A stretch of DNA of 64,000 nucleotides from a virus: IMG/VR virus record IMGVR_UViG_3300032046_000016, positions 1 through 64,000 of that record. The stretch is one strand, 5' to 3'. Positions 2,773 to 31,053 of the stretch are shown here, one piece after another. The notes beneath the pieces are model-generated. The model was given only the letters and a program-made list of their open reading frames with translations, was not told the origin of the DNA and did not search any database. The stretch's first letter is position 1. Every line of letters starts with the position of its first letter. Both the position numbers and the translations under genes were made by a program.

Positions 2773-2994
2773 CTACCCCCGCGCCACCACTTTCGGAGGT
2801 CCGTACTCTACTGAGAGGCCAAGCCGTGTGAGCCAGCGCGAGATCACGCTCGGCCACACCTCCAGTTCCTCGGCGGCGCCTCGAACGCTTCCCTTCTCCA
2901 TGATGAGTCGGGGGAGCAACTTCTCCATGGGCTCACCGCGCTCTATCTCGATGAGCTTCATGCGGTCCGTCTTGCCATCGGCACTTGGTGCCAC
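2773..2994 (-). CDS. small HTH DNA-binding protein
   Basis: SVRGAAEELEVWPSVISRWL helix-turn-helix; RBS AAAGGAGG and GTG start at 2994. Confidence 0.7.
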   Translation of the reverse strand: MAPSADGKTDRMKLIEIERGEPMEKLLPRLIMEKGSVRGAAEELEVWPSVISRWLTRLGLSVEYGPPKVVARG

Positions 2995-3016
2995 GGCGTG
3001 CCTCCTTTCGTGGTTT

Positions 3017-3045
3017 AGTGTACCAGATAGGTTCACCGTTGTCAA
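3017..3045 (-). promoter_or_regulatory. sigma70-type promoter for the HTH-RDF-int operon
   Basis: TTGACA-17-TACACT with TG extension. Confidence 0.75.
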
Positions 3046-3193
3046 GAAGCCACGTGTACCGGGGTCGGGCGACGCGACTCGCTCGCTATATCCTACATGA
3101 CTCGCTGTCTGTGTACACCCAAGGAACACCCTACATCGTGAGCGATGGCACCCTATTAGAGCCATCCCAAAGCCTGGATCGGCAAGCTGGATC

Positions 3194-3250
3194 GTCCAGA
3201 CGTCTGGACAATCGCGCTGGTCGCCGCTAATCCCGTCCAGACTTCTGGAC
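3194..3250. repeat. two 16-bp palindromes GTCCAGACGTCTGGAC (parS-like)
   Basis: Perfect copy at 3194-3209, one-mismatch copy at 3235-3250; further perfect copies at 24410-24425 and 42563-42578. Confidence 0.85.
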
Positions 3251-3281
3251 GGATGTCGGCCACCAGCCGACTCTCTCGTCT

Positions 3282-4535: not shown

Positions 4536-4848
4536 TGGTCCCTCCTGTGTCTTGAGCTGGCAGCGCCCTCTCCCGCAGATTCTTCGTCGCGCTGTAGATT
4601 CCAGACGCCGCCATTCCGGTAACGACCCCTCGGAGACCCGCCGCGATCCAGCCGACGTCGGACACGGCAGCGTCGGGCAGAGCGGCGTTGACAGCCAGGC
4701 TCCAGGCCACGCCCATGGCGATGGCGATCAGCGGCCACCAGCGGCTGTCAGGAACGAACGGCTTTATGACCTGCAGCAGGGCGGCGATGATGGGAGCCGC
4801 GGCCAGCCCCGTGACCAGGACATCGTCAAGTCCTGAGGCGGGTGTCAT
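4519..4848 (-). CDS. holin
   Basis: Three hydrophobic segments, VIK..VP.RWWPLIAI and G..TGMAASGIYS holin-type motif. Confidence 0.8.
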   Translation of the reverse strand: MTPASGLDDVLVTGLAAAPIIAALLQVIKPFVPDSRWWPLIAIAMGVAWSLAVNAALPDAAVSDVGWIAAGLRGVVTGMAASGIYSATKNLRERALPAQDTGGTSEPPG

Positions 4849-5321
4849 GTCGGCTCTCCCTCCTTCTTCTCTCCGTCCTTCTCCACCACCCCGATCTTCG
4901 CTTGCTTGCCCAGCTCATCCACTACGCGTTGCAGTTCGTCGGCCCAATGCTCCAACATCAAATCGTTTTGGCGTTGGCCCTCGGTAGCGCCCTCAACGAG
5001 GAGCTGGAGCTGTACCCGGTGGGCCGCCGCCTTCGACCGGTCGAGGAGCTCGTTCAACTGTCTGATCTCGTCGGATGTCAGGTCCTCAACCTCGGGCGCC
5101 TCTGCAAGAGCCTGCCGATGCCGCGTGGTGAGGGCTGTCTGGGAGTGCGCGTCAGTGTACGCCTTGAGGAAAAGCGTGCTGAGGGTCTTCTTTTCGTCCT
5201 CTAGCCGCGCCTTCTTGATGTCGGGATCAATCTTCTCAATCAGATCGCGGTAGCGCTGTTCGCCGCTCGGTGCAGCAGCCATGGCTTTAGCCAGCCTCCT
5301 TCGCTGTGCTCGGTTGCCCAT
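4845..5321 (-). CDS. hypothetical coiled-coil protein
   Basis: ORF translationally coupled between tail fibre and holin. Confidence 0.6.
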   Translation of the reverse strand: MGNRAQRRRLAKAMAAAPSGEQRYRDLIEKIDPDIKKARLEDEKKTLSTLFLKAYTDAHSQTALTTRHRQALAEAPEVEDLTSDEIRQLNELLDRSKAAAHRVQLQLLVEGATEGQRQNDLMLEHWADELQRVVDELGKQAKIGVVEKDGEKKEGEPT

Positions 5322-5337
5322 CGGGGTACAGTGTACT

Positions 5338-7548
5338 CTACGGGGACAAGTTGGCAAGAGTCACCTGGGTCTCAACAGCCCCAATCTTGCCCCGCACGCG
5401 CAGCTCGTCGGCACCCGCCCCGTCCGAGTAGAAGTACAGCAGCGCCTCGCCGTCCACGTAGGCGGGGTCAGCGGCCACGGACGCCAGCCGCGTGTGCTGG
5501 ATGATCTTGAGCGTCGTGCCGACACGCAGCGCGCCTGCGATGTCAGCGATGAACCCAGCCGTGATCGCCGCGTCAGCACCCACGAATAGTCGAGCGGCGT
5601 TCAGATCGCCAGCAGTCACGTTAGTCGGGGCGGTGACGGCACCGACTCGCGCGTAGCGAGCCACTCTCAATGCGTCATCGGTGGCGAGCACGTTGCCGTC
5701 GGCGTGGCGGTAGAGGTTGGTGTCCCTCCCGGAGCCCCAGGCGATGACGTTCCGGCTCGCCGTGTCAGACGACAGCCACAACGCCGCCGTGTTCATCCCC
5801 TCAATGCGTATACCCACATTCAGCGTCGTAGCTACGATGCAGTTCACCAGGTAGATGCCGTAGTAGTTAGCAACCACCCCGGGGCCCGCGCCCAGTGCAG
5901 GACCATCGATGTGGATACCCTGCACCTCGCCTGTGACCTGCGCGACCGATCCACCTACGAAACTGCTCGGATGAACATACAACCCATAGCAGGTTCCCAC
6001 GTTTCCGGCGCCTAGACTAATGAAGTTAGAGAGTTGTCCGGCCCACAGGTTCGCCATCGTGCCGGAGCCGGAGTGCTGCACGAGCGCGTCCAGGCCCACG
6101 AGGTATCCAGTGAAGTTCTGGACATTACCTGGCCGCGACTCGGCGAACACCCGCTGACCGACGTAGGTCGCAGAAGACGCCCCGCTCGGGTTGGCGTCCA
6201 CGAGGCTCTGCAGCTCGTAGAAGGAACCTGCGGTGATGGTCGGAATGTGGAAGATGCTCAGGCCCCTCAGCGGGTTTATCGTCCTGCTCGCGGGGTCATT
6301 CGTGACCAGCAGGTTACCGAAGACAAGGGCACCGCCCTCTACGTCAAGAGCAGCCGTGGCTTCGATGGCAGTATTCGCACCAATAACTGCCCGCAACGCC
6401 GTTAGGTCGCCGGCAGTCGTGTTGACCGGAGCCAACCAACTGTCTCCGATGCGCGCCCATGCACCGACATTCAACTTCCCGTTGGCACCGACGATCCGAG
6501 TCCATCCAACGATTTGAGCTGCGTAGTTAGTAACCCCGATGGTCGGTTCCTCAACGATGAGCCCCCAGGCGTTCGTGATCGTGCCCGTGCCGACCTTTAT
6601 CTGTGCCGCCAGGTAACAACTGTACGTATCAGGAACCGTCTCCCCCGCGTCTACCTGAATGCGACCGCCGCCTGCCAGAGCCGTCGCACTTTGGCCGTTC
6701 GCCGGATACAAGGTGGCGCTGGCCCAATTCATCCCGTGGGCTGGATTCCCGCTTGCGTGACCATCGATGGTGCCCACGTACTCGAAGCCGATGTAGGCAT
6801 GAGGTTGCGTGCAAGCTCCCAGGCGCAACGGCCCACCAAACGACGCTCCGAGACCAAGGGGCCAGATCGCAAACTGGGCGACGGCATCCGCGTAAGCCCG
6901 AAGCGTGTTCCTGTAGGCGTCCAGGTGCCAGGTGGTCGCCCACGCGCCCGCGCTGTGGAAGTCGATCTGCCCGCCTTCGTCTACGGCATCCTGGGCGGCC
7001 ATGATGAGAACTGGGGCGCTGCCATCGACCCCGATCTTGACATCGCCGAGGAAGGTAGGCCCATGGTGCCCCGTCAGGTAGGACCGCCGGTCCGCGACGC
7101 TCGTCACCACGCCGCCGGCCGTGACCACCTCCGCCAGGGGAACGCAGTTGGCGGGGAAGCCGGTCGTGTTCTTGGCGACCACTCCGAGGTTGTTGACGAA
7201 GACATAGTTCGTCGCCGAGTCGGTAAGCGCGATGCTGCCCGCTGCGACCAGCGTGTACGTCTCGTCGACCCGGACCGAGCCCTCCTCGTAGGAGGCGTTC
7301 AGCCCGGCGCCAGCCGTGACCCTCAAGCTCTTGGTGTGCTTCGATCCGTAGAGGACGTGGACCGAAGTCTCGGGGATGATCGGAGGACCGCCGCCGTTTC
7401 CATCCCCACTCTCGGCACCGGAGCCGGTGCTGCCGTAGACCAACACCCTCCCGTCGGTGACACGGGTCAGCATCGCCTCCAGGTGATCGACGCGCGCCAT
7501 CGCCAGGGAGACGGAGTTAGCCAGGCCGTACCCTTGGGTGCGCCTCAT
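5338..7548 (-). CDS. tail fibre / receptor-binding protein
   Basis: Gly/Ala/Thr-rich beta-rich sequence, internal duplicated motif (ARIG..APVNTTAGDL / ARVG..APTNVTAGDL), located after the tail-tip gene. Confidence 0.75.
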   Translation of the reverse strand: MRRTQGYGLANSVSLAMARVDHLEAMLTRVTDGRVLVYGSTGSGAESGDGNGGGPPIIPETSVHVLYGSKHTKSLRVTAGAGLNASYEEGSVRVDETYTLVAAGSIALTDSATNYVFVNNLGVVAKNTTGFPANCVPLAEVVTAGGVVTSVADRRSYLTGHHGPTFLGDVKIGVDGSAPVLIMAAQDAVDEGGQIDFHSAGAWATTWHLDAYRNTLRAYADAVAQFAIWPLGLGASFGGPLRLGACTQPHAYIGFEYVGTIDGHASGNPAHGMNWASATLYPANGQSATALAGGGRIQVDAGETVPDTYSCYLAAQIKVGTGTITNAWGLIVEEPTIGVTNYAAQIVGWTRIVGANGKLNVGAWARIGDSWLAPVNTTAGDLTALRAVIGANTAIEATAALDVEGGALVFGNLLVTNDPASRTINPLRGLSIFHIPTITAGSFYELQSLVDANPSGASSATYVGQRVFAESRPGNVQNFTGYLVGLDALVQHSGSGTMANLWAGQLSNFISLGAGNVGTCYGLYVHPSSFVGGSVAQVTGEVQGIHIDGPALGAGPGVVANYYGIYLVNCIVATTLNVGIRIEGMNTAALWLSSDTASRNVIAWGSGRDTNLYRHADGNVLATDDALRVARYARVGAVTAPTNVTAGDLNAARLFVGADAAITAGFIADIAGALRVGTTLKIIQHTRLASVAADPAYVDGEALLYFYSDGAGADELRVRGKIGAVETQVTLANLSP

Positions 7549-10500
7549 GTCAGCTTCACCGCCAGGGCGCCTTGTGGCCACCAGCCGATCACCCCGATCT
7601 TGGTCTTCCAGTCGTACTCCATGACCGTCCAACTGGCCTCCAGGTCCGCCTTAGCCGCCGTCGCTGGCTTCATCCTTGCCACTGGTGCAGGATACGGGCT
7701 ATCCCCGAAGGATGAGTAGAAGATGAACAGCCGCTCGCCGTCTGGATTATATGCCAGGGCGTGCTTAGTCTCCTCGGTGTTGAGCCAGATTGCCTCCCAC
7801 GCCTCTCCGTTGTTGCTAGACCGGATCAGGCAGAGGTCGTCTTGGCCGTCCGACTGGTTATAAGTCAGCAGAAACGCCCACATGCCGCACCGAATGAAGT
7901 TCTGCGCATGGAGGGTATCAGCCGGGGCCTCATGCTTTTGAGTCCAACTGACGCTGAAATCATCTGACACGCTGATGCGCACCTTCTGGTGATGCGTCAG
8001 GATCAATCGGTTGTTCTGCCCCCAGAGCACCCAGAGGTCGGCCACATCCGCCCCCCAGTTGCTAGGGATGTGCTGCTCAACGAAGTTGCCTCCCCCGTCA
8101 AGCGTCAACACACAATGGTTGTCCACCACCGACACCCCCCTGACCGCCGCGACTTGAAGCGCGTTGTTGGGGTTGACCGAGATCGAGTTGAAGGGCACGA
8201 GGTTGGAGCCGCTTCGGTGGTAGCGCTGCGTCCACGTCCCAAACTCGCCCGTGGGACTGCTCCAAATGTAGAGGTCTGTGGCGTAATCAGTGCCAGCGTC
8301 GCCCCTGGTACACGCCCAGAAGGTTCCGTCCGGCCCTCGCGTGAATGCCGAGCAGTAATCAAGTACCGGCGTAAACGTCAGCCCGAAGTCCACGCTCCGC
8401 ATGAGGGAACCGTGAGCCAGCGAGTTGCCCTCATTTTGGAAGAAGAGCACCTGGCCGTGCCACTGCAAGCGCCAGGCGTCGTCTCCAATGTCCTGCTTGA
8501 TGATCTCCCACGAAGTCCCCGCCAGCTTACACAAGTTCTTGTGACCACTCGCCATTCCCACAATGAGCCATATCTCGTCCGGTTCCTGGCTTGCCTCCGC
8601 ACTCTGGGCGACGAAGCTTATCATTCGCCCGATAGCGCCACCTGGCCAGGTCGAAATGCCGGCCGCCGGCCGCAGGAACCCAGCCGTGTTCCCCTTGTCG
8701 GTCGTCTTCCAGATACCCTCGATGCTCGCCCCGAAGAAGAGGTTCGGGTGCCCCTGCACGTTCATGGCGTGCCACGGCTTGTTCGCGGCCGTGCCCGGTA
8801 AGACCCAGGCCGTCGTATTCTGCGTCGGCAGCGCGCCGCTCGGTACCACGGACCCGAGGTCGTCCCACTGGTTGACGGCGCCGACGGTCGCCATCAATAG
8901 CTCGCTGCCAGCCGTGCGGCCGTAGACCTTGTAGCCTGTGGCGCCCACCACGCTAACCCAGCTCACGCGTACGCCCGCCGGTCCAACGAGAACGATAGTC
9001 GTGTTCGGTGAGGCGAGCGTCTGGCCGAGATCGTTGATGGCGCTCACCCGATACGAGTAGGTCCCCGACGCCAGGCTGCCCGCGATGGGTGCCAGCGTGG
9101 GCGCTGTCGGCGTGGACAGACGGGCACGGCTCGTCGTCCAGTTCACGCCGTCCGTCGAGACCCACATCTCCTTCGTGTCGAAGGCGGCCAGGAAGTCGCC
9201 AGCCGTGCCCATCTGACCGATCGCGCCCCCATTCGGACAGATCAGGCGGCCCTGCCTGAGACCTGCATCCAGCCCCACGGCGTTCTGCCAGACGACTGGC
9301 CAGGCGTACAGGTCGGCGGCATACATGATGGCCGGCTCACGCGTGCCCTTGAAGATAATCGCCAGCTCGGGGAAGACGTTAGCGGCAGCCTCGGCCACCG
9401 AATCCCCGGCGGCGCTCGGCGTAAAACTGCTCATGTCGGGACAGTGCCAATCGTTGGCGTTGTCTATCCAGTTCCATTGGATCAGGGTGCCCGGCAGGTC
9501 GGCCCGGCCGCCGAAGACGAAGACCACCGGCGGGCCCGGGGGCGTGGCGATGCGGTTCAGCGGGTAGGTGCCGCCGAAGTCGTGGTAGAGCTCCCACGTG
9601 CCGCCGGCGCCGCCGATGGAGCGGTACAGGCGCCCATTCTGCGTACAGGCCCAGACCACGTTCTGCTGGTTACTGTCCCACCAGAGGTGATTGATGGGCG
9701 ACCCGGCGGGCTCGGTGTAGACCAGGGTCGGCGAGGTCGCCAGCCGGTCGATGCTGCGGTATATCTTGCCGCTGTCCGTCCCGAACAGGAGCACTCCCAG
9801 ATCGTCGGGCCCGCCGTACTCGGCGGCGGCCGTCGAGATGAGGTTGCCGCTCAACGGTCCCTGGTCGGTCCAGGTCCAGCCGCCATCGGGCGTGAACGTG
9901 GCCCGATTGTAGATAGCCGCGGAGATCGTCGGCACGAACATGTCACCAGACGCGCCAGGGCCGATGTTCACCGTCTGGCTGATGCTTCCCTTCAGCCCGT
10001 CGTTATCGGTCACCTCCAGAGTGATCGTGACGTCGGCCTTCACAGCAGGGTCGTACACGAAGTTGACCGTGTTCAGGTCCGCGCCTTGCTGGAGGTTCGG
10101 CGGCACGTAGTCGTCGGTCCACTTGTAGTCAACGATGGTGCCGTCGAGGTCCTGCGAGGTGCTGAGGCACGTCACCAGGACCTGCAGGGTGGTGCCGATC
10201 AGCTCCTTCTCCATCTTCACGATGAAGTCGGCCAGCGGCATCAGCTTGATCGTCGTGCCCGACTGGTCGCCGCCCATGAGCTGCAGCTCCGTGTCGCACG
10301 TGCCCGCCTCGGCGTCGTAGACGTGCCGGTAGCTCTTGACGAACCAGCGCCCCACCTTCCCCGTGATGTTCGGGTCGGTGATCCCGATGGTCTGGCAGAG
10401 CCGGATGTCGGGGTCGAGCGGCACTCTGAACGGGATCGACTCCAGGATGCGGTGCTGCTTGTCCAAGAGGCGGACGGCCACGGCCGTGGCCTTCGGGACG

Positions 10501-19842: not shown

Positions 19843-21198
19843 CTACGCCACGCTCACGCGGCGAGCGTTCGCGTGCAGCTTCTCCCACGGAATCTGGAGC
19901 GCCACCAGGCAGCGCATCAAGAAGTCGTACGTCCCGCGGGTGATCGCCAGCGGAATGTAGGCCATGAAGTTCGCCTGGGGCTGCCCCAACGGGTCGAGCA
20001 TGCCGACCAGCGATGCCCCGCGAGCCGGATTGCGATTGATCAGGAAGATCACCTCATCGCCGGCGTCGAGCGGCTTCTGGTTGGCGGCGTGCGGAGGCGC
20101 CGTGTACCCGCCGGTGTCGTCGAACGTGACCACCCGCGCCAACGGGTTGCCGTCCGCGTCGTAGGTGTTGGCGGGAATGACCGCCAGCAGCGTCTCCGTG
20201 CCGCTGGCCGTGCCCCGGAACACCTTGTAGAGGATGGCATCCGCGTCGTCGTCCCACGTGAGGCGGATGGTCTTGTTCGGGTTGGCGGTCGTGGCGTCGT
20301 CCTCGACCGCGGCCACCTGCTCGCCCCTCTGCGTGACCGACGCCACGCGATAGAAGAACTGCGTCGCGTCGGGCAGCGTGCCGCCGGCGACGGCTGCGGC
20401 GGAGAGGTTCCCCGGCTTCGCCACGCCGGTCGGCTTCACGTAGCTCGTTTCCAGAATGACCACGCCGCGATATGTTGACATGCGCATTCCGCCCTCGAAC
20501 TCCACGTCGGGCGTCTCCCGGCGGGCGAGGGTCTGAAGGCCGCTCACCTTCGAGTGCATGCCGATGCTCATCATGAACATCAGCGGGTCCTTCGCCGTGC
20601 CCCTGTACGGCGTGGCCGCGTCGATCAGCTCGTCCAGGACGCTGAGCGCGACGACCCCGTTCACGTCGAAGACGTTGGTCTGGGACAGGCGGTCGAACCC
20701 GTTGTACTGGTACGGGTCGCCGGACGCCGCGCCACCACCCGAGACGTCCTTCTCACCCGTGCTCCCGGAGGCGCCCCAGATGGTGCAGAACTCCAGCATC
20801 TCGCTGATGCTCTCCACGCCGGCGCCCTGCTCCAGGAGCAGAGAGTCGAAGAACTTCTTGCTCGCGCCCATCTGGAAGCCCGAAACCGAGCCCCAGTAGT
20901 CGTCGATCTTCAGGGTGACGGTGGGGCGATCGAAGGTCGACGCGCCAGGGCTGGTCTCCTTCGCCAGCTCGCCCTCGAAACGGGCCTGCTGACGCGCCGT
21001 GCGCCGCACGATCTCGTGCACCCGGGCCGTGGCCTGCGTCCTCTCAAGCAGGGCTACCAGCGGATTCTGGCTCAGAAGGTCCTCCACGAGGACCTTCTCC
21101 AGGTCTTCCGCCTGGAGAGCGGCACCAGAGCCGGAAGCCGCCGTCAGCGCCTTGATGAGCTCGCTGGTGGCCCCTTGAACCTGCGCGCTGGGGGGCAT
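19843..21198 (-). CDS. major capsid protein with inserted FN3/Ig-like domain
   Basis: KALT...ALQAEDLE N-arm, FEGE, YNGFDRL, YRGVVIL motifs; follows scaffold; strong RBS. Confidence 0.88.
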   Translation of the reverse strand: MPPSAQVQGATSELIKALTAASGSGAALQAEDLEKVLVEDLLSQNPLVALLERTQATARVHEIVRRTARQQARFEGELAKETSPGASTFDRPTVTLKIDDYWGSVSGFQMGASKKFFDSLLLEQGAGVESISEMLEFCTIWGASGSTGEKDVSGGGAASGDPYQYNGFDRLSQTNVFDVNGVVALSVLDELIDAATPYRGTAKDPLMFMMSIGMHSKVSGLQTLARRETPDVEFEGGMRMSTYRGVVILETSYVKPTGVAKPGNLSAAAVAGGTLPDATQFFYRVASVTQRGEQVAAVEDDATTANPNKTIRLTWDDDADAILYKVFRGTASGTETLLAVIPANTYDADGNPLARVVTFDDTGGYTAPPHAANQKPLDAGDEVIFLINRNPARGASLVGMLDPLGQPQANFMAYIPLAITRGTYDFLMRCLVALQIPWEKLHANARRVSVA

Positions 21199-21277
21199 GA
21201 TTCATACCTCCTTCAACCGAAACCGCCACGCAGAACGATCCGGTCGCTATCGTCCGTCTGCAGGTAGGTTCGGAGCG

Positions 21278-22828
21278 CTACTCGACCCGCACCCCGAACA
21301 TGATGCGGTTCAGCGCGCCCAGCCTCTCACGCGGGGGCAGGGCGTCCAAGCGCTTGCGCAGGGCGGTCTCGGCCTCGCTACCCTCGGCCTCCGAGCCCTC
21401 CCCTTCGGGAGGGCTACCGCCGAGGCTCTTGTAGACCGGCCGGCGGGCCTTCGCAATCTCGCTACGGACGACCTTCGCCACGTCCACGAGGGTGAGCGGC
21501 GCGTCTCCGTTCTGACCAGTGTCACCAGCCGCGGCGGCGGGAGCCTTCTCCCCGGCATCCTTGGGCACCAGGCCGGTCCCCTTCGCCACGTCCACGATGG
21601 CGCCCTGAAGGTCCTGCACCCAGGCAACCAGCTCCTTCATGGCGTCGCGGATGCCCGTCGCGTCGACAGCGCCATCGGCGCGCTTCTCCACGGCGGGAGC
21701 CGGCGTACCGTCGCCATCGGCCTTCTGGGTAGAGCCCTCCTCGAGCAGGGCGAGCATGGCCTTCACGCCCTCCTCGATCTTGTCCATGGCGCTCTTGATC
21801 TCGATCTGGGACTGCTTCGAGAAGCGGGCTCCCCGCTTCTCGATGTCGCCCAGCGTGAGACCGCTCATGGCGACGACGGCTTCCAGAGCCCGCTTCGAGG
21901 TGTCGGTCAGCTCCTCGCTGCCGGCCGCCTTCTCCGGCTTGTAGACGGTGGCCGCGTTCTCGAAGGCGGCCAGCCACCTGGAGTTGAAGTCGCCCAGCGC
22001 CTTCTTCATGAGGTTGCCGCGCTCGTCCGTCTTGACCTCCGCGGCCTTCAGGATATTGAGCGAGACCTGGTGCAGAGCGTCGCTCAGCCGCCAGAACTGG
22101 CTCGTCGCCTCCTGGCCAGCGATCAGCCCGGCGAAGTCGGTCTGCTTCGCCACGCCACCAGCCGGCGCCTCGGCCGCAGCCTTCTGGACCGCGGCTCCCT
22201 CACCAGCCGGCGCGCCCTCACCAGCCGGCGCTCCCTCACCGGTCGGCGCGCCCTCAGCGGCCGGAGCGGCAGCGGGAGCGCCCTCGCCGGCCGGAGCGCC
22301 CTCAGCACCCTTGGCCGCTTCGCCCTCGCCCTCGCCCTCACCTTCGCCGTCGCCACCCTTCTTGGTGGGCTCCGGATAGCCGTACTTCGGCTTCTCCTTC
22401 GGCTTCTTCGCCTTGCCCGCGATGGCGGCGCGCAGCGCCTTAACCGCCTCCTGGAGGGGAGCCGGCAGGGAGTCGAAGACCTTGTCGAGCTGCTCGACAG
22501 CAGCCTTCACGGCCTTCACCTCGTCGTCCCCGAGGTCGCCGGCGGCCTTGCTCACCAGCACATCGAGGGCATTGGTGATCTCCACGGCCGCTTCCTTGCT
22601 TAGCTGGTCACCCTCGACCAGCACCGCCAACCCGCGGCCAATGGAGGCGACCTGGCCAGCCAGGTCCTTGGGGTCGGTGTCCAAGTCCGACATTCTCGCG
22701 CCTCCTTCTTGTCTGCGCTTCACGACCCACCAGTCCTCACCCAGGGCTGGCACGTCTACTAGGTCCACCCCACTGACGTGGAGATCGACCAGCTCTCCGA
22801 CTTCATCGGGCTTCTTCGCGTCAGGCAT
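21278..22828 (-). CDS. capsid scaffolding protein (N-terminal protease-like VDLVDVPA strand)
   Basis: Acidic helical protein with APAGEG repeats upstream of MCP. Confidence 0.7.
   Translation of the reverse strand: MPDAKKPDEVGELVDLHVSGVDLVDVPALGEDWWVVKRRQEGGARMSDLDTDPKDLAGQVASIGRGLAVLVEGDQLSKEAAVEITNALDVLVSKAAGDLGDDEVKAVKAAVEQLDKVFDSLPAPLQEAVKALRAAIAGKAKKPKEKPKYGYPEPTKKGGDGEGEGEGEGEAAKGAEGAPAGEGAPAAAPAAEGAPTGEGAPAGEGAPAGEGAAVQKAAAEAPAGGVAKQTDFAGLIAGQEATSQFWRLSDALHQVSLNILKAAEVKTDERGNLMKKALGDFNSRWLAAFENAATVYKPEKAAGSEELTDTSKRALEAVVAMSGLTLGDIEKRGARFSKQSQIEIKSAMDKIEEGVKAMLALLEEGSTQKADGDGTPAPAVEKRADGAVDATGIRDAMKELVAWVQDLQGAIVDVAKGTGLVPKDAGEKAPAAAAGDTGQNGDAPLTLVDVAKVVRSEIAKARRPVYKSLGGSPPEGEGSEAEGSEAETALRKRLDALPPRERLGALNRIMFGVRVE
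22196..22350. repeat. coding low-complexity tandem repeats (GEGEGE / APAGEG)
   Basis: About 18-nt imperfect repeats within the scaffold gene. Confidence 0.75.
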
Positions 22829-22836
22829 ATCCGCTC

Positions 22837-23214
22837 CTAACGCTTCTTGCGCTTGCCGTTGTTCTCGACGAGCGCCACATGGACCTCATGTATGCTGGCG
22901 GCAATCTCTCGCAGGGCCGGCATCTCGGCATCGGAGTGCGCCTTCAGCGCCGCGATGAGCTCGGTATGCTGCACTTCTGTTGCCTCCAGCCTTCTCAACA
23001 GCTCGGTGATGAACGCCTCTCTGATCTCGGCCTGGCGCCTGGCCTCCGCCATCTGTTCCTTGACGAACTCCTCGAACGCCAGGCGCTGGCGTTCTGTGAC
23101 GACCTGATTGTTGCGCACCACCCACGTGAACACCCCCGCGAGCACCAGGGCGGAGAGGAGCGTGCCGCCTTCCTTCAGCGCCTCGTACCCGAAATCGAGC
23201 ATGACCAATGTCAC
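22837..23214 (-). CDS. membrane-anchored coiled-coil protein (BhlA/holin-like architecture)
   Basis: One N-terminal TM segment followed by a coiled coil. Confidence 0.5.
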   Translation of the reverse strand: MTLVMLDFGYEALKEGGTLLSALVLAGVFTWVVRNNQVVTERQRLAFEEFVKEQMAEARRQAEIREAFITELLRRLEATEVQHTELIAALKAHSDAEMPALREIAASIHEVHVALVENNGKRKKR

Positions 23215-26200
23215 TTGATCTCGGACCGCTTTCTGGGTATGCGGCGCGCCCGGCCCTCAATGCTGAACCCGGTCCGCTCACCCTTCTTCACGCGCTCCCA
23301 CTCGCGCGGATCGTTCACTCGCACGCCCATGATCCAGGTGCCCTTGACTACCTTATGCAGCTTGCCATCGGTTCCCTCCAGCTCGAAGTCTGTCGGTGCC
23401 AGGTAGCTCTCGACGACCCGGAGCCTCGGGTCGTCGTACACGTGCATAACGCCGATCTGCTGGAAGCGCTCCATAAAGCCGTGCGCCGCCTTGCGGATCT
23501 CCTCGGCCTTGACCACCTCGTCCTGGAGGTCGATGTACGGCCACGGCTTGAGCACGGGCCCGTAGACCAGGTGCTCCTCCTCGACCGCCTTGATGATCAG
23601 CATCTTCAGGACGATGCGGCTCTCGACGGCCTTCGCCTTCAGATCGACGAGCTTCGGCTTCTCCCCAGGCTTTGCCCACACCAGCCAGTGATCCCCGCGC
23701 TTCCGCCTCTCGTCTGCCACCTCGTCGAGCGTCTTCGTATCGGCGACTGGCGTTTCATCCTCAGGCCACTGAGCCAGCCAGAAGCGCTCGCCGGTGGGTC
23801 GGGGGACGGAGCTGATCACCAGCCGGCCCTTCATGTCGCCCTTCTCGTCCTTCAAGAAGAGCTCGAAGCTGTGGCGGTGCCACACGCCCATGTCCCAGGT
23901 GCCGTAGGCGACGGCGAACAGCATGCCGTAGGTCTTGGAGCTGGCGCCGGCCTCGCCAGGCTTGAAGACGGCGGGCTTGCCTCGCCCGACCTTCAGCCAC
24001 TCGACGGGCGGCGGGCCGTACCAGGTGCATTGGAAGCTGGGCGCGTGGTCGGCGGCGAGGAACTCGTCGGTCCCGTCGTCGTCGGTGTCCGGCTTGAAGA
24101 TGACGGGGTGAAACATGAGCTTGGGGCTGAACTGGCAGCGCAGGTCGCCGTGGTAGCGGTAGCCGGCCTTGCGCAGGTCGGCCTCGCTCTTGCCGGCGTC
24201 CTCTTCCTTGATGCCCATGTAGTGGTGGTGATAGACGAACTGGCCCGTGCCGCTGGGCGGCCACATTCTCTGCCAGTCGGTCTCCCAGAGGCGCAGGAAG
24301 CGCTCACCCCGCGACTCGCCCTCGCCCTGCTTCAGGAGGTGGATCAGCCCGATGTCGGGGACCTCGAGCAGCTCGAAGTCGGCGTCGGCGATCTCCGGGC
24401 AGGTCACTTGTCCAGACGTCTGGACTTTCTGCTTGGGCTCCTGGAGGACGTGGGCCCGGCGGGCGATATCGACCGCTTGGTTCGCGTAGTAGGCGTCCTT
24501 CCGGCTGATGTCCCGGTCGATCACGGTCGGCACGACCCAGTACAGGATCGGCTTCCCGTCCTTATCGGGACCGCTCACCAGCTCCTGGACCTGGACGGTC
24601 AGGACGGCGCCCAGGGGATAGGTGCCGTTGTCGCTGACGCCGCCGACGTCGATGTACTCCCGGCCGTCGTACTCCTGGAGGTTCGTGTAGCTGTCGCGTC
24701 CGTGGAGCAGCCCGCAGGTGTAGGTCTTCGAGCCGCCGGCGTTGTCCTTGCTGTCGATCACCGTCACCTTCAGCTCGGTGACGTGCTTCACCTTCGACCA
24801 CTCGTTCGTCGACCCGCCGATGCCATAGGGACCGTCGAGGGTCTTCACCATGGCGCCCTCGGACATGGCGACGGCGCTCGCCTTGAGGATCGCCGCGTTC
24901 ATCTGCGCGCGGTCGTGAACGATGGTGGTGCTGGTGATAGCGAAGGCGGCCTTCCCCTTCAGGTTCTTGGCGTAGAACTCCTCCAGGGCGGTGCGCCGCT
25001 CGGTCCACGGCTTCTCGTGCAGGTCCTCTTCCCGGTAGGGCAGGTCGAAGACGGTCAGCACGACGGTGGCGCCGGCCAGGTCGGGCTCGTCGGCCAGGAG
25101 CGGGTCGAGCTCGGTGCGAGGCAGCCGCTTGCCATCCCGTACCATGCCCATATCGCAGTCGAGAATGTAGTCGCCAGGGATGGCGAGCAGCATCTTCGCC
25201 AGGTCGGGGAAGACCTTGGCCCGGTCGCGGATATTCTCGAAGGCGATCTCGACGCGGCCGCCCGCCTTCTGCACCACCGTACGGTAGCCGTTGAACTTCA
25301 CCTCGACGTCGAGGCCGCCGGCGATGCGGTCCTTTGCCCAGTGATCCCAGAGCTCCGAGCTGGACAGGAACTCCGTGTACTCGGCGACCGCCGGCTTGGG
25401 CGGTATCCACTTGCCGAAGGGCTTCAGGGCGACCTTCTCCAGGTCTTCGGCCTGCAGCGCCATCCCAGAGGGCGAGTCGGCGGTCAGCGCCTTCGTCGTG
25501 GGCTTCACGGCCCGGAGGCGCCCGCGGACGTGAACCGTCTCCCAAAGGCCCGGCTCCTCGAACGTCTCCTCCTCAAGGTCCAGGATCTCGAACTCGGCAG
25601 TAGTGCCAGCCTCCTCCCGGAGCTTGGGGTCGGCGTAGAACTGGAAGCTCAGCTTGTTCCAGTAGCTCTTGTGGGTCGGGTCGGCGAAGGCGCCCTCGCC
25701 CTGCGTGCTCGGTACCTCGAAGGCCAGGACGCCGCCGGACTTCAGCACCCGCCAGATCTCGCCCATGATGGCGACCTGGTCCTCCAGGTGCTCCAGGAAG
25801 TGCCAGGCCCGTACCTCGTCCACGCTGCCGTCGGGCCAGGGGATGCCCTGGCTCAGGTCGTGGACGACGTCCGGCTTGACGTCGGCCCGGGCGTCGATAT
25901 TCACGTAGCCGTCCAGCTTCTCCTTCCCGCAGCCCAGGTTCAGGCGCACGGGCCCAGCCTTCTTCAGCGTGACCACCGCGCGCTCTTCCACGGGACGCAG
26001 CACCAGGTCGTACAGGGGAACGTAGTCGGAGTGGGGGCCGGAGGCGCTGAACACGTGATGCAGCTCGGGCTTGCCGCTCTTGCCTGGGTCAACCTCCTTC
26101 CGCATCAGGATGGTCAACCCTTCTATCAGGCCGGCGTTGTGGTCGCACGCCTCAAGCCGGTAAAGCAGGTCTACGTCTCCGGGCTTCGAGCCGTTGCCGC

Positions 26201-26534
26201 CGGCCTTGATCGCCAGGACCTCGTCGGCCGACTGCACCGCCGAGCCGACTATGCTCACGAAGTGAGGGACGACCAGGACGGGATCGGTCAGCCGCTTCAG
26301 CACGCTGTCGTGCTTCATGCCCCGCTTGTCCATCTCGGCGACGATCCCAGCGTGGAGGGCGCGGCAGCGCTTCTGGCTCAGCGGCTTCTCGTGGACAAGG
26401 ACCTCGTTGCCCTTCTTCAGCTCGGCCCACCAGATATGCGTCAGGCGGTGGTCAGCGACAAGCCCGCCATCCGATACCTTCGACGGGTCGAACGTGTCGA
26501 TGTCCTTGATCTTGGCGATGTCCACAGCATTCAT
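23211..26534 (-). CDS. polyprotein: NTase-like + SAM methyltransferase + ATP-dependent DNA ligase + LigD-PE-like + XkdF-type prohead protease
   Basis: VSIVGS...GDVDL; LNLGCG...HFLEHL...EIWRVLK; EVKFNGYR, VFDL, EGAMVK, WSKVK; FVYHHH...HGDLR; VYGPVL.P...DLQDE...VVESY...GTW...TGFSIEG. Start could be 26573. Confidence 0.85.
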   Translation of the reverse strand: MNAVDIAKIKDIDTFDPSKVSDGGLVADHRLTHIWWAELKKGNEVLVHEKPLSQKRCRALHAGIVAEMDKRGMKHDSVLKRLTDPVLVVPHFVSIVGSAVQSADEVLAIKAGGNGSKPGDVDLLYRLEACDHNAGLIEGLTILMRKEVDPGKSGKPELHHVFSASGPHSDYVPLYDLVLRPVEERAVVTLKKAGPVRLNLGCGKEKLDGYVNIDARADVKPDVVHDLSQGIPWPDGSVDEVRAWHFLEHLEDQVAIMGEIWRVLKSGGVLAFEVPSTQGEGAFADPTHKSYWNKLSFQFYADPKLREEAGTTAEFEILDLEEETFEEPGLWETVHVRGRLRAVKPTTKALTADSPSGMALQAEDLEKVALKPFGKWIPPKPAVAEYTEFLSSSELWDHWAKDRIAGGLDVEVKFNGYRTVVQKAGGRVEIAFENIRDRAKVFPDLAKMLLAIPGDYILDCDMGMVRDGKRLPRTELDPLLADEPDLAGATVVLTVFDLPYREEDLHEKPWTERRTALEEFYAKNLKGKAAFAITSTTIVHDRAQMNAAILKASAVAMSEGAMVKTLDGPYGIGGSTNEWSKVKHVTELKVTVIDSKDNAGGSKTYTCGLLHGRDSYTNLQEYDGREYIDVGGVSDNGTYPLGAVLTVQVQELVSGPDKDGKPILYWVVPTVIDRDISRKDAYYANQAVDIARRAHVLQEPKQKVQTSGQVTCPEIADADFELLEVPDIGLIHLLKQGEGESRGERFLRLWETDWQRMWPPSGTGQFVYHHHYMGIKEEDAGKSEADLRKAGYRYHGDLRCQFSPKLMFHPVIFKPDTDDDGTDEFLAADHAPSFQCTWYGPPPVEWLKVGRGKPAVFKPGEAGASSKTYGMLFAVAYGTWDMGVWHRHSFELFLKDEKGDMKGRLVISSVPRPTGERFWLAQWPEDETPVADTKTLDEVADERRKRGDHWLVWAKPGEKPKLVDLKAKAVESRIVLKMLIIKAVEEEHLVYGPVLKPWPYIDLQDEVVKAEEIRKAAHGFMERFQQIGVMHVYDDPRLRVVESYLAPTDFELEGTDGKLHKVVKGTWIMGVRVNDPREWERVKKGERTGFSIEGRARRIPRKRSEIK

Positions 26535-26542
26535 GACGACAA

Positions 26543-26569
26543 AGACCCCACCGAAAGACGGTGGGGTCT
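26543..26569 (-). terminator. strong hairpin (terminator or attenuator) immediately upstream of polyprotein ATG
   Basis: 11-bp stem AGACCCCACCG/CGGTGGGGTCT, 5-nt loop, short T run. Confidence 0.55.
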
Positions 26570-26616
26570 CCAAGGGACCTCTTCGTTAAGTGCTGGGGAT
26601 CAGATTCAGCGCCAGG

Positions 26617-27707
26617 TCATTGCAGGCGGGCGGCCGTCCTGTTGATCTCGGCTACCAGCTCGTCAAGGGGCACCTCCCAGTAGTGCCAGGCCCCGTGGTG
26701 CTTCTGGCGCATTCGCACCACGATCACGTCACGTCTAAGGCATACCATAAACCAGGGCGCTCCGCAAGCACAATACTGAGCGCGCTCGGCACCCTCTGCC
26801 GGCGGCGTCTCATGGGCCTGCAGCTCCCGCGTCATTGTCAACGATAGGATTCCTGCCCTACCGCTGCCCGCGCGGCCCGGCGTACCTCGCCGACTTCCCG
26901 GGCCGTCAGGCCCCATTCCTGGAGCTGCTCGTCGGACACGCCGTCAAGCTGCTCCCTGGTCAAGGTTGTCAGGCCACCGCCCAGCTCCACCACGTCGCCC
27001 TTCCAGCAGTCCATCAGGCGCTGCCGCAGGCGGGGCCGGATGCCCATCTCTTCCAGAAACGACGTGTCGTCCCGCCGGCTGACGGGATACGTCTTGACGA
27101 TCTTCGCAGCGCTACCATCAGGCACGGCTGGCCTCCTCTGCCGGTTCTCTACCGCCACCGCCGCTCTCACCCTTCTCAAGGCGCGGGCCCCAATCCTCCG
27201 CGCGCTCTTCGACAGGCACGGCCATGAGCACGCGGCAGCGAAGGCAGGGCACCACGTAGAAGGTCGATGGCTCCCCCGCCGTCGGGCCGAAGTCCAGCAG
27301 ATGGAACTCCGACTCGCCCTCGACCTGGACGCTATGCAGGTTCGGCCGGTGGCCGATCAGGACGCACAGCAAGCGCTTAAACAGATTCATGGCCTCGCTC
27401 CCTCTGCGGCCAGCTCCTCGGGCTCGTCGGCGGTGACGTGCAGGGCGGCGGCCGGCAGTGGTGGAAGCATCTGGACGTCAGCCGCCTCTGCGGGCGCGGC
27501 ATGGAGCATCACCGCCGTCATGGCGTCGATCTGCGGGTTCCGGGCGCCATCGAGCAGACCGAGCAACGTCATGCCCGTGACGGTCCAGCCGGACGGCCAG
27601 CAGCCGCGGATGATGCGCTCTGCCGCCTCCGCGTCGTGGACGATGAAGGGTGCCTCCGCCACGACACTACCGTCCTGGTCGAGAACCTTGAGCACATGCA
27701 GCTCCAC
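26617..27707 (-). other. cluster of four small hypothetical ORFs (26617-26835, 26838-27179, 27118-27390, 27387-27707)
   Basis: Overlapping coupled ORFs, some with CxxC motifs, behind their own promoter. Confidence 0.5.
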
Positions 27708-27734
27708 GCTTCACCTCCGACAACTATCGCGCAG

Positions 27735-27796
27735 ATGATAACACAACGACTAAGCCCGTCAATCGACCTTGACAGCACGGACAGGCGTGCTACACT
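27735..27796. promoter_or_regulatory. back-to-back divergent promoters
   Basis: Minus: TTGACG-16-TATCAT (27735-27762); plus: TTGACA-16-TACACT (27769-27796). Confidence 0.6.
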
Positions 27797-27799
27797 CAA

Positions 27800-27868
27800 G
27801 GTGCCCCTAAACAGGTGCCCTCCTGTGACGGAGCACAAGAGCGTCGGCGCCAGCCGGCGTTCTTGATG
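27800..27868 (+). ncRNA. candidate small RNA
   Basis: Plus-strand promoter with no credible ORF, ends in hairpin CAAGAGCGTCGG/CCGGCGTTCTTG, carries GGTGCCCTCCTGT. Confidence 0.3.
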
Positions 27869-27870
27869 TC

Positions 27871-28887
27871 TCAGGCAGAGCGCCTCTGGCCGCTCCAAGG
27901 AACCTCCGGGCGGTCCCAGGCACAAGGATCGGCAGCGGCCTTTCGCAGCAGCTTGCCCACGCCAACCCAGCAGCGACGCGAGAACGGCGACACCCTGCAG
28001 CGGCAGCGTGGGTGTAGGGGAGGATGATCGTGGCCGCTCGGAAACATGCCCCCGAAATGGGCGCTGGGAGGCGACGGCGCCAGGAGGCCGGACCGGAGAG
28101 GCACCGCGCCGGCCGCCTCGTTGTCCCGGCAGCGTGAGCAGGCGCCAAACTGGCAGATCCACTCGACGTACTCCACGCCGTTCTGCTGGAAGGTCATCAG
28201 GCGGCCGATCTGCCGCGTGCGCTTCAGCTCGGTCCTGGCGATCAGCTCGGCGCGGTCCCGGTTCTGAACGATCTTGTCTATCTGGCCAGTCATGCGCTCC
28301 GGCCCGAAGTTGCCGGACAACCCGCGGAGGATGGAGTTGGCGATGGAGCGGCGGGTCTGCTCACGGATTCCCTTGATGCTGGAGCCCACGGTCAGCGACA
28401 GCATGCGCCGGATCGCTGGGTCGCGGAGAACGAAGCGCTCGGGCGGGAAGCCCTCGCCCTTCGGGCCCGCCTTCTTGACGTCCTGAGCGGTGTAGCCCAG
28501 CTCGGTCAGGGCGTCGGCGCCGCCCCGCTGGAAGCCCAGGATCGCGTCCAGCGCCAGGACCGTTCCCATCTTGGCCCACAGACGCTGCGCCTCCTCGCTA
28601 TCGTCCCAGGCTGCCAGCAGCCCCTCGATGCGGCTGCGCGTCGAGTTGGGCGACAGGCGCACCCATTCCTCGACCGGCATCGAACGGCGCAGCTCCGCGA
28701 ACAGGCGGAGGACACCGAGGCCGGCCTTTACCTCGTGGGGCTCAATCAGGTCGCGGGGTTTCGGGCGTGTGGGGAGCGGAAGACGGTAGCGTTGCTGGGG
28801 CGTCGCCGCCTTGAGGATGTCAGTCGCCGGAGGGCTGAGAGTCGTGGTCCTGTGCCTCCCTTCGGCGATAGCCGTTACGCTCTCCAA
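27871..28887 (-). CDS. MuF / SPP1 gp7-like head morphogenesis protein
   Basis: RAELIARTE, C..C and PPLHPRCRC motifs. Confidence 0.9.
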   Translation of the reverse strand: MESVTAIAEGRHRTTTLSPPATDILKAATPQQRYRLPLPTRPKPRDLIEPHEVKAGLGVLRLFAELRRSMPVEEWVRLSPNSTRSRIEGLLAAWDDSEEAQRLWAKMGTVLALDAILGFQRGGADALTELGYTAQDVKKAGPKGEGFPPERFVLRDPAIRRMLSLTVGSSIKGIREQTRRSIANSILRGLSGNFGPERMTGQIDKIVQNRDRAELIARTELKRTRQIGRLMTFQQNGVEYVEWICQFGACSRCRDNEAAGAVPLRSGLLAPSPPSAHFGGMFPSGHDHPPLHPRCRCRVSPFSRRCWVGVGKLLRKAAADPCAWDRPEVPWSGQRRSA

Positions 28888-29122
28888 TCGCCGCCATCAG
28901 CGCCTGCAGGAGAAGGTCCCAAGGTCCGAGGCGCCGGCGCGGAAAGCCGGTTACCCGGCCGTGGCGCCAGGCCACACGCGGTCGCCGCCGCTTCGACAGG
29001 AACACCACGTAGTTGCCCATCGTCGGGCTTCCCGTGCAGTCGTTGGCGATCAGCGCCGTCCCCAGGTGCTCCCGCGGGGCGGCGCCGGCCGCAGGCACGG
29101 ACTCGACCGTCACCCTCAACAT
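28820..29122 (-). CDS. hypothetical protein
   Basis: Coupled ORF (I.ND.TG...GNY.V...V.GFPR). Confidence 0.55.
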   Translation of the reverse strand: MLRVTVESVPAAGAAPREHLGTALIANDCTGSPTMGNYVVFLSKRRRPRVAWRHGRVTGFPRRRLGPWDLLLQALMAAIGERNGYRRREAQDHDSQPSGD

Positions 29123-29268
29123 ACCGCCACCGCCTCGGGAGACCGGTTCCTCTTTATCTGTTGCAGGAGAAGCCGTAGCGCGCATTGCAGGCACACGTAC
29201 TCTTCCTCAAGAGGGTCGAAGTGCAGATCGCCGCCGCACTTCGGGCAGGCCTTCAGTACGAGCCTCAC
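29116..29268 (-). CDS. small zinc-ribbon protein
   Basis: CPKCGGDL...CLQC; GTG start overlaps portal stop. Confidence 0.6.
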   Translation of the reverse strand: MRLVLKACPKCGGDLHFDPLEEEYVCLQCALRLLLQQIKRNRSPEAVAVC

Positions 29269-30908
29269 ACCGCTAGCTGAAACAGCTCCTGCAGGTCCGC
29301 GCTCGCCGCCTTCTTCGTAGCCGCATCCACGCCGGCGTCCCGGAGGTCCTGGATCACGCTGTCGAAGTACCAGCGGATCTCGCCCTCGGTGTCCAGCTCC
29401 TGCATCGCCTTCTCGACCGCCACCTTCAGCGGGTCGGGAACCTGCGAGCTCAGGAACTTGCGCCGGCGGCCCCGCTCGCAGTCCTTGAGCGCGGCCCTCT
29501 TCCAGCGCCGCATCTCGTCCAGGACAGGCTGAGCGGCGTCGGCCTTCTGCGCCTTGCCTGCGCCCTCGGGCTGCACGAAGAGCGGAGTGGCCGCCTCGCC
29601 AGCCGGCACGAGGCCCTGATTCATCAGGAACGTATCGCCGCCCTCGTAGGGCTCCATGCCGCGCTTGGCGCGCCACTCGTTGCGGGTCTGCAGGCCGGAG
29701 CCGACCGCGCTCACGCCGACCGCCACCTCGTCGCTTTCCTTGGCGAAGTCCGGAACCTTGAACTGGATGCGCCAGCCCTTGATGCCCTTCCGCCAGAGGC
29801 GCCACATGTTCAGCGTCGTCTGCACGATCTCCTGCATGGGCTTGGCTTCCATCCAGTACAGGATCTGCTCCAGGCCCTCCAGGTTCGCGCGGTTGACGTC
29901 CTCGACCATGCCAAGCACGCCCGCCGATGCGCCCACGACGGACAGCATCTCGTTGCGGCTGAACGTCCGGCCCTTCAGGTACTCCGAGTCGCGGCCCGGA
30001 CCTGGACCGCTCACGAAGCTCTTGTAGTCGACGCCACCCTTCACGACAACGGCGTCGCGGTTGGCGTTCTCGACCCCCGCATACCAGGCCTCGATCTTAG
30101 CCTCCAGCGCTGCGAAATCGTCGTCCTCGATGTCCTCGGGCGCTGCCCACATGCCTGGTGGGGTGCGCTGATTGCGGAACGAGTTCTTGTTCCACGCCTG
30201 GGCGTACAGATCGGTGATAGCGGCGATGCGCAGCGACTCCAGGTCGGAGGCGGTCCACCGTCCCTCGATGTCGGGCACCTGGAAGTTCAGCACCTCGTCG
30301 ATGGCAAACTCGGCGGCTTTGCCCTCGAAGTACTGGATGTACGCCTTCTCCAGGTTGGGGAAGTAGCCCTTGGCGTCCACCATCGGCACCACCCGCCCCG
30401 GCATGACCACGAAGTCGATCTCGTCGCCGAAGCCGTTCTTGACGATCTCCCACGAGCAGAGGTTAAAGAGCTTCAGCCGGGCGAACGTCAGCCAGAGCTT
30501 GTGCACGGTGAGCTGCCACTGGCGGACGTTAATCACGGGCCCCTGGAGGTCGGGGTTAAAGAAGGTCCGCAGGTAGGCGCCAGCGTCGGGGTCGGGGTCT
30601 TCACCCTCTTCCAGCTCGTCGCGGGCCTCGACGATCTCCAGCGGCTGCGCCACGCAGATCAGGGCGATGCGCCGAATGGCGGCGCGCACCCAGGGTAGCG
30701 ACCGCCACAGGGCGACGAGCTCGAAGTGGCTGATCTGGGCGCTGCCCTCATACATGGCAGCCATCCCAGCGCCAAGCCCGTACAGGAAAGGTGGCCGCAT
30801 GAAGCTGCGCGGCTGCGGCGCGGACTTCGGCGATGGCGTCGCCGCCTTAATGACGCGCCGCTCGTGGCCAGGAGGAAGCCAGAGCTCAACCTCAGTCCCT
30901 GTCGTCAT
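29265..30908 (-). CDS. portal protein
   Basis: HK97-type portal motifs (WVRAAI, FRNQRTPPG, EDVNRAN, TRNEWRAKRGMEPYEGGD). Confidence 0.92.
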   Translation of the reverse strand: MTTGTEVELWLPPGHERRVIKAATPSPKSAPQPRSFMRPPFLYGLGAGMAAMYEGSAQISHFELVALWRSLPWVRAAIRRIALICVAQPLEIVEARDELEEGEDPDPDAGAYLRTFFNPDLQGPVINVRQWQLTVHKLWLTFARLKLFNLCSWEIVKNGFGDEIDFVVMPGRVVPMVDAKGYFPNLEKAYIQYFEGKAAEFAIDEVLNFQVPDIEGRWTASDLESLRIAAITDLYAQAWNKNSFRNQRTPPGMWAAPEDIEDDDFAALEAKIEAWYAGVENANRDAVVVKGGVDYKSFVSGPGPGRDSEYLKGRTFSRNEMLSVVGASAGVLGMVEDVNRANLEGLEQILYWMEAKPMQEIVQTTLNMWRLWRKGIKGWRIQFKVPDFAKESDEVAVGVSAVGSGLQTRNEWRAKRGMEPYEGGDTFLMNQGLVPAGEAATPLFVQPEGAGKAQKADAAQPVLDEMRRWKRAALKDCERGRRRKFLSSQVPDPLKVAVEKAMQELDTEGEIRWYFDSVIQDLRDAGVDAATKKAASADLQELFQLAV

Positions 30909-31053
30909 CTCTTGCTCCTTCGGCGGGCACTAACCGAGCCAGGGAGGATCACGGCGGAGGCGACGCTCTTCCGCGCCTGCTTCCTCGCCTGATGCTTAGC
31001 TATCTCATTCGCCCTGTGCGCGGACGCGGCCCTGCGCTTCCTGGCGTTATGGC

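Follow-up and report, generated by a model that had tools for sequence, protein, structure and literature searches.

Why would a head protein that is not a capsid subunit carry a piece of its own phage's major capsid protein (MCP)? The question arises from IMG/VR virus record IMGVR_UViG_3300032046_000016, an 80.9-kb contig from an uncultured sediment phage (66% G+C), of which we analyzed positions 1 to 64,000 (64,000 nucleotides, hereafter the window). Two head genes are concerned, one encoding the MCP and the other a polyprotein with the domain order helical N-domain, nucleotidyltransferase (NTase)-like domain, S-adenosylmethionine-dependent methyltransferase (MTase), ATP-dependent DNA ligase, LigD-phosphoesterase (PE)-like module and XkdF prohead protease. 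Both genes are read on the minus strand and their plus-strand translation is meaningless. Between the MTase and the ligase, the polyprotein reproduces the beginning of the N-terminal arm (N-arm) of the MCP, with 18 of 21 amino acids and 49 of 63 nucleotides identical, and seven of the 18 identical residues are encoded by different synonymous codons. We confirmed that this likeness is real and far from chance. BLASTP returned the polyprotein/MCP pair with an E value of 2e-5, and the Smith-Waterman score was 79, whereas 2000 shuffled versions averaged 29 and never exceeded 54 (Gumbel p 6e-8); the second-best match among the six-frame open reading frames (ORFs) of the window scored 39. A repeat search of the window recovered the pair independently, as D2. 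The likeness is confined to the 21 residues and the flanks are dissimilar on both sides; upstream of the shared Lys the MCP reads SELI and the polyprotein KPTT, and the left junction consists of 9 nt common to both genes (AAGGCGCTG, encoding KAL). Since two other phage lineages, described below, appear to have copied part of their own MCPs likewise, the copy probably acts as a head-assembly signal.

An assembly artefact was considered and excluded, since the identical polyprotein is present in three assemblies and contigs from two further sediment studies cover positions 25201 to 25571 and 25223 to 25806 with zero differences and no joint lacking the insert. A DNA-level element was also rejected, as the 18-mer is present at the two sites only and the synonymous divergence counts against conservation of the nucleic acid itself. 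In another sediment metagenome (run X6), we observed a variant of approximately 93% identity over positions 25560 to 25951, its differences lying chiefly in the third position of codons in the MTase module. This contig ends 67 nt before the insert and has no bearing on its presence in that relative.

Comparison of the copy with the MCP gene gave rates of nonsynonymous and synonymous substitution of 0.126 (dN) and 0.854 (dS), respectively, for a dN/dS of 0.15. When the 14 substitutions were placed at random, three or fewer amino-acid changes were obtained with P = 1e-4. The three changed residues correspond to positions that are also variable among MCPs, and the family-invariant A17, L18, L28, D32, and L33 are all kept. 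The copy also has A30, K35, and V36, which are specific to the lineage of the resident MCP; the nearest MCP relative (P0007, 80% identity) reads ..EDLERA.. instead. The simplest history would be an intragenomic duplication after the split from this relative, followed by long retention under purifying selection.

The same data bear on a neutral origin, in which a fragment of an MCP gene, possibly from a co-infecting relative, was inserted by microhomology-guided illegitimate recombination and has since been tolerated without a function. Such an event would fit the 9-nt microhomology at the left junction, the restriction of the insert to one lineage, the tolerance of linkers for insertions, and the mosaic nature of the phage (a chimeric scaffold, and a polyprotein and an MCP with different nearest relatives), and a foreign donor allele would account for the dS without selection. 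We nevertheless find a functionless relic improbable considering the dN/dS, the small probability of so few amino-acid changes, the lineage-specific residues that the copy has in common with the resident MCP, and the identical sequence in several sediment studies, where no insert-less form was seen. An independent copy of an MCP N-terminus in another lineage, described below, also counts against random events, which should copy random genes.

An alignment with 15 homologous polyproteins located the copy. Relative to them, the window protein is longer by 20 residues, inserted precisely at the MTase/ligase junction, where the homologues read ..V-x-K-(A/G)-L-x-P-F..PPKP. With 150 representative homologues, the HMMER alignments break at residues 358 to 364 and resume at 375 to 382. 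In the AlphaFold2 (AF2) model of the polyprotein (mean predicted local distance difference test [pLDDT] score of 69), the MTase is confident up to residue 355 and the ligase from about residue 385, with values below 50 in the linker between them (residues 359 to 380). Because the insert coincides with this linker, it is accessible, and the model places the copy in an exposed, disordered segment. In L106 (9785-12082) and P0035, which are on the same contig, the MTase is on a separate 995-aa protein and the ligase-PE-protease portion is a gene of its own, a split that confirms the MTase/ligase junction as a natural module boundary. The initial annotation had placed the copy directly before the ligase domain, which agrees with these results. 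Its coordinates for both segments (Table 1), its count of identities and synonymous codon differences, and its view that the conservation is at the protein level were likewise correct.

A parallel arrangement was found in L090 and L093 (94% identical), whose polyproteins start with a Mu-I-type protease (PF10123) followed by NTase, MTase, and ligase domains. Immediately behind the protease, approximately 20 residues on, both repeat the N-terminal sequence of the lambda-E-type MCP (PF03864) encoded by the same phage. In L093, the segment ITVQTPGIHT is identical to MCP residues 3-12 at 10 of 10 positions. The BLASTP E value was 1e-4 and the shuffle p ranged from 2e-6 to 6e-8, and this pair of loci was the only outlier in 84 comparisons with the cognate MCP N-terminus. 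Random illegitimate recombination should copy random genes, so that the repeated use of the MCP N-terminus argues for a selected head-assembly signal.

A third lineage provides a lead, not proof. The homologous polyproteins P0081, P0110, and P0175 (37-55% identity) have in common the linker motif (E)L..ALTT.SG..LIP.K[IV]D, which lies between a DenV-like N-domain and an ASCH-like domain and resembles SU10-type arms. The phage encoding P0081 (L156/L157) has genes for the portal, the polyprotein, an S78 protease and the MCP, in which the MCP begins with MEGLDIEKALTTADGSGAALIPEKLD. This N-terminus was the best match to the P0081 motif within the locus (score 47, next 29; shuffle p about 0.001; BLASTP E 0.046). 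The motif thus foretold an SU10-type MCP, a type that was found in 0 of 46 other polyprotein loci. By the same logic, the MCP arms are predicted to be of the EINKALTSVDAVALIPENL type for P0175 and of the ..LTS.SGSALIPEDLD type for P0110. With this lineage included, the recurrence comprises two MCP families and three different linkers.

How could such a copy work? We favor a reading in which the copy, by mimicking the arm, would hold the polyprotein (or only its ligase-PE-protease fragment) in the procapsid, and in which the chain may also be cleaved between K361 and A362; we consider this quite possible, if short of probable. Codons 17-36 of the resident MCP gene (60 nt) would have been inserted in frame behind a Lys of the MTase/ligase linker, and purifying selection would then have kept them. 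The insert would serve as a short linear mimic of the capsid arm, gripped during procapsid assembly by whatever grips the MCP N-arm, and this grip would hold the polyprotein or the fragment inside the shell. Since the copy starts at the KAL sequence, the linker may also be cut after its Lys, by the XkdF protease of the polyprotein itself. The best candidate for the gripping partner would be the basic C-terminal helix of the scaffold, the alternatives being a neighboring MCP subunit or the protease. A broader proposal would be a convergent address code, whereby head polyproteins take the N-arm of their own MCP, whichever its family, to load or anchor enzyme cargo (methyltransferase, ligase, end-healing domains) through arm contact. 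This we hold to be conceivable but doubtful.

The scaffold was proposed as a partner because the arm segment is acidic (AEDLEK) while the conserved C-terminal helix of the scaffold is basic. In 80alpha, the N-arm of the MCP in the procapsid is the docking site of the C-terminal helix of the scaffold (PMC5644958). A complex prediction of scaffold residues 380-516 with polyprotein residues 345-400 scored 0.00, which gives no answer for or against binding. The scaffold of the window is chimeric. Similarity to scaffolds from phages with E-type MCPs and polyprotein homologues is seen in its N-terminal half (KYGYPEPTKK, AVKALRAA), and only its basic helix resembles scaffolds of phages with SU10-type MCPs, suggesting a recombination joint inside the gene. 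Together with the different nearest relatives of the polyprotein and the MCP, this indicates that the phage is a mosaic. The protease domain has 42-49% identity to both groups, and its donor lineage is not discernible from similarity. Scaffold genes located directly after an XkdF domain all start with a strand-like (E)VSLV.RPA(N/I)..(F/W)...K motif (positions 22700-22828 of the window, minus strand; L003:8950-9100; L075:10168-10300; and others), which could complement or bind the protease fold. The scaffold gene of the window also has an 18-nt tandem repeat at 22186-22317 (minus strand), encoding low-complexity (A/E)GAP(A/T)GEG repeats.

Alternatively, the insert could be a processing site only, duplicating the MCP maturation site (..K/ALTA.., the slash marking the cut) so that the XkdF protease separates MTase and ligase in step with MCP maturation, with no docking. 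The copy starts exactly at this Lys, the linker is disordered, and the homologues have V-x-K-(A/G)-L-x-P-F at the same place. Within the window, KAL[TRS]A is limited to the scaffold, the MCP, and the polyprotein (0.15 occurrences expected), and L(R/K)KAL(R/S)A is found at the C-terminus of the head protein upstream of the MCP in three SU10-type loci. Cleavage motifs shared among head proteins are known from the gp21 sites of T4. They are also known from the capsid protein, the scaffolding protein, and L27 in 80alpha (PMC5744158). However, a protease site would be far shorter than the 20 residues conserved on the P' side, and the copy leaves out the P side. The scaffold KALRA is inherited, as other scaffolds have the homologous AVKGALRLL, and it comes from phages with E-type MCPs that look uncleaved. 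The P0081, P0110, and P0175 motifs have S, E, or N instead of K ahead of AL/EL. In L090, the codon that begins the MCP ORF directly follows a stop, and the MCP has no leader to remove; copying of a cleavage site therefore does not explain L090/L093.

The cut itself is also in doubt for this MCP family. The initial annotation had taken maturation after a Lys near the N-terminus as established for MCPs with this style of arm, such as Cps of Listeria phage A511, but the MCP of the window has no detectable similarity to A511 Cps and such a cut is not established in its family. Many family members have only 6-8 residues before KAL (MxSELKKAL, MEGLDIEKAL, MSILTKAL), and no cleavage is reported in the SU10 structure paper. 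Neither the sequence preference of XkdF proteases in cleavage nor the N-terminal processing of SU10-type MCPs was treated in the literature that we searched. Overall, we regard a processing site alone as unlikely.

It could also be proposed that the copy is a pseudo-substrate or competitor, filling the MCP site of the protease (or of the scaffold) in cis and quieting the protease or timing assembly until MCP arms displace it. The protease and the mimic are indeed on the same polyprotein, and in L090/L093 the copy is only about 20 residues behind the protease domain, where it is placed to fold back. In the window, however, the copy is approximately 600 residues from the protease domain, and our literature searches gave no autoinhibitory precedent for XkdF/S78 proteases. 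We consider this reading very unlikely.

Is the arrangement common among relatives? Fourteen homologous proteins and 58 viral loci retain the N-arm motif EL.KAL..G.AL.P.DL.P.L.EELL, one of the best-conserved parts of the MCP family. A second arm copy within 10 kb on either side was found in none of these 58 loci (best scores of 23-51, compared with 78 for the window), nor in the 12 of 14 further metagenome MCP loci from a profile scan for which the N-arm could be located. The five nearest MCP loci encode small XkdF proteins (350-396 aa) and no polyprotein, and BLAST found no polyprotein domains in the other loci with related MCPs. Conversely, the 46 viral loci with polyprotein homologues have lambda-E-type MCPs, with no SU10-type MCP and no insert, and 146 further representative polyprotein homologues are without the insert. 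An arm profile built without the window had a single significant match in 166 polyproteins, which was the window protein itself (P0005, E 1.2e-4). No further carrier was found in a metagenome scan with the 180-aa segment around the insert, in a protein search with residues 320-460, in scans of genome contigs, or in scans of viral contigs with a single MCP query or P0097. Members of the polyprotein cluster were either identical or fragments missing the insert region. The insert is thus, as far as these searches extend, specific to one lineage, which argues against a loading tag used by the whole family.

Several points weigh against arm mimicry as a loading device. The insert is present in 0 of 165 homologous polyproteins and is thus dispensable for the family at large, and the protease domain must already enter the procapsid. 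The copy ends at V36, before E39, L41, P46, and L47, which are invariant in MCP arms, and therefore cannot reproduce the arm interaction in full. A diverged MCP allele donated by a co-infecting relative could give a low dN/dS without selection. AF2 modeled the first 172 residues of the MCP with a pLDDT below 50, leaving the arm unreadable. As for the third lineage, P0081, P0110, and P0175 were not significant against the N-arm profile (E 2-9 in the 166 polyproteins), and their motif was selected post hoc. The proposal of the initial annotation therefore stands in part. The copy, its constraint and its position hold, and across families a peptide that tracks the cognate MCP is borne out by the E-type N-terminus in L090/L093 and by P0081 beside an SU10-type MCP. 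The maturation cut is not established for this family, and docking in an N-arm groove is conjectural. The peptide is absent from the 165 polyproteins, and loci with related MCPs have no second copy, an outcome that the initial annotation had itself named as speaking against a loading tag.

Table 1. Positions of the features discussed, in the window (64,000 nucleotides) unless another locus is named.
Feature	Extent	Position	Strand	Basis or remark
Head polyprotein	1120 aa	26573..23211 (23211..26573)	-	Pfam, PHROGs, AF2, Foldseek
Embedded copy of MCP N-arm	Polyprotein residues 361-381, KALTADSPSGMALQAEDLEKV	25431..25493	-	Lys plus 20-residue insertion relative to all homologues
Methyltransferase module	Polyprotein residues ~207-355	25509..25955	-	PF08241 at 236-285; AF2 strands to 355; HMMER alignments of homologues stop at 358-364
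ATP-dependent DNA ligase module	Polyprotein residues ~385-712	24438..25421	-	PF01068 at 421-596; alignments of homologues start at 375-382
XkdF-type prohead protease domain	Polyprotein residues 993-1112	23238..23597	-	PF14550, E 1.1e-29; phrog_3017 head maturation protease
Scaffolding protein, chimeric	516 aa	21278..22828	-	
KALRA of scaffold	Scaffold residues 130-134	22427..22441	-	Third and only other KAL[TRS]A in six-frame ORFs of the window
Conserved basic helix of scaffold	Scaffold residues 439-470, ..VAKVVRSEIAKARRPVYKS	21419..21514	-	Only segment in common with L003/L060 scaffolds
Major capsid protein (P0006)	451 aa	21198..19843 (19843..21198)	-	PHROG major head protein matches
Original of the copy	MCP residues 16-36, KALTAASGSGAALQAEDLEKV	21091..21153	-	Start of N-arm after 15-residue leader
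L090 polyprotein		1805-5338		
L090 MCP		7892-8818		
L093 polyprotein		2522-6055		
L156 polyprotein (P0081)		2907-6728		
L156 MCP	300 aa	8002-8901		PF17236

The head genes of the window are arranged on the minus strand in the order portal, MuF-like, small genes, polyprotein, a 125-aa ORF, scaffold, and MCP, and the block from portal to MCP covers about positions 19843-30929. For the polyprotein, the PHROGs assignments agree with Pfam. The protease domain belongs to PF14550 (Peptidase_S78_2) with 103.4 bits against a gathering cut-off of 24, and the ligase module had Foldseek matches to archaeal and human ligases (E 1e-17). By eye, we also recognized a Pol-beta-type NTase motif (around residues 110-135) and a LigD-phosphoesterase-like module (around residues 780-930). 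Polyprotein homologues formed 351 clusters at E <1e-30. One of them, P0030, has an insertion of about 400 residues in the MTase motif after DHK, with a Cys start, which is intein-like with a homing-endonuclease core. The 451-aa protein is an MCP by sequence comparison, related to SU10-type MCPs. It had no Pfam match at E 0.01 or below, but relatives at 36-39% identity carry PF17236 (SU10_MCP), and the L156 MCP, which has the same N-arm motif, matches this family at E 2.7e-12. The only cultured phages with matches were Leptospira LE3/LE4 (26%). The 125-aa ORF in the gap between the polyprotein and the scaffold has TELIAALKAHS, similar to SELIKALTAAS of the MCP (22932-22963 vs. 21132-21163, minus strand; 32 nt at 81%; repeat family D13). 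This likeness is probably due to chance, as its score is within the background.

In a full-text literature search, we met no account of a cargo or protease protein that carries a copy of an MCP arm, as had been surmised in the initial annotation, and the arrangement can only be compared with partly similar systems. In T4, the internal proteins IPI-III and Alt begin with a capsid-targeting sequence (CTS), a leader of about 10-20 residues that the prohead protease gp21 removes at an (L/I)xE-type site. In both cases a short peptide would address non-structural cargo to the procapsid interior in connection with processing by the prohead protease, and enzyme cargo would be delivered with the DNA. 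However, the CTS is cut off and is unrelated to the sequence of gp23, whereas the peptide of the window would stay on the C-terminal product and copies the MCP arm. It is internal (residues 361-381 of 1120) instead of an N-terminal leader, and the protease of the window is of the XkdF/S78 type, not the gp21 type. The cargo-loading peptides of encapsulins lie at a terminus and follow a consensus of their own instead of copying the shell protein. By analogy, the window peptide may be another short linear enzyme tag for the interior of an HK97-fold shell, with putative binding, although it differs in being internal and a copy of the MCP arm, with no sequence similarity to encapsulin peptides. We know of no natural case of a non-capsid protein that carries an arm copy to exploit the contact between scaffold and arm.

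In 80alpha, the capsid protein, the scaffolding protein, and ribosomal protein L27 have a common N-terminal motif that is cut by Prp (PMC5744158). In both systems, the capsid protein and another head protein have one short sequence in common, with a connection to proteolysis that would be putative in the window. In 80alpha, however, what the proteins share is the leader (P side), which stands at true N-termini and is removed by a host protease. The shared part in the window is internal and on the P' side, extending from the presumed P1 Lys 20 residues downstream with a different sequence upstream, and the protease is phage-encoded in the same polypeptide. The scaffold-arm contact of 80alpha (PMC5644958), a subject also of work on P22, SPP1, and phi29, offers the same partner logic for the acidic arm and the basic helix, which could pair likewise.

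The polyprotein itself fits the theme of polyvalent proteins, which are large multi-enzyme proteins encoded among head genes and for which packaging and processing have been suggested (Iyer et al., 2017; PMC5512222). It contains several unrelated enzymatic domains by Pfam (MTase, ATP-dependent ligase, XkdF protease) and is encoded in the head block near the portal and MuF genes, comparable to the order portal, polyprotein, protease, MCP in L156. Its repertoire of MTase, NTase, ligase, and phosphoesterase also corresponds, and homologues add uracil-DNA glycosylase, 2H/LigT, and metallo-beta-lactamase domains. The text of the polyvalent protein study (PMC5512222) has no XkdF, a single mention of a prohead protease and no capsid-derived peptide. 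What is new here is the internal copy of an MCP arm in a head polyprotein, while capsid-addressing and shared-cleavage-motif systems are known.

The carrier lineage is a single uncultured phage, but the apparent convergent parallels make an experiment worthwhile. The capsid loading of non-structural enzymes is understood for T4-like phages through the CTS, but hardly for phages with polyvalent head proteins. If the insert were only a shared cleavage site, it would offer, for the first time, a hint from sequence at what XkdF-type prohead proteases recognize. If arm mimicry is true, a capsid-arm-copy tag would be a new and predictable solution, as the loading peptide could be guessed from any MCP sequence, and it would be a portable cargo tag for engineering cargo-filled phages or HK97-fold nanocontainers. 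DNA-modification and repair enzymes that the virion delivers would thereby also be shown to carry a deliberate address for the head.

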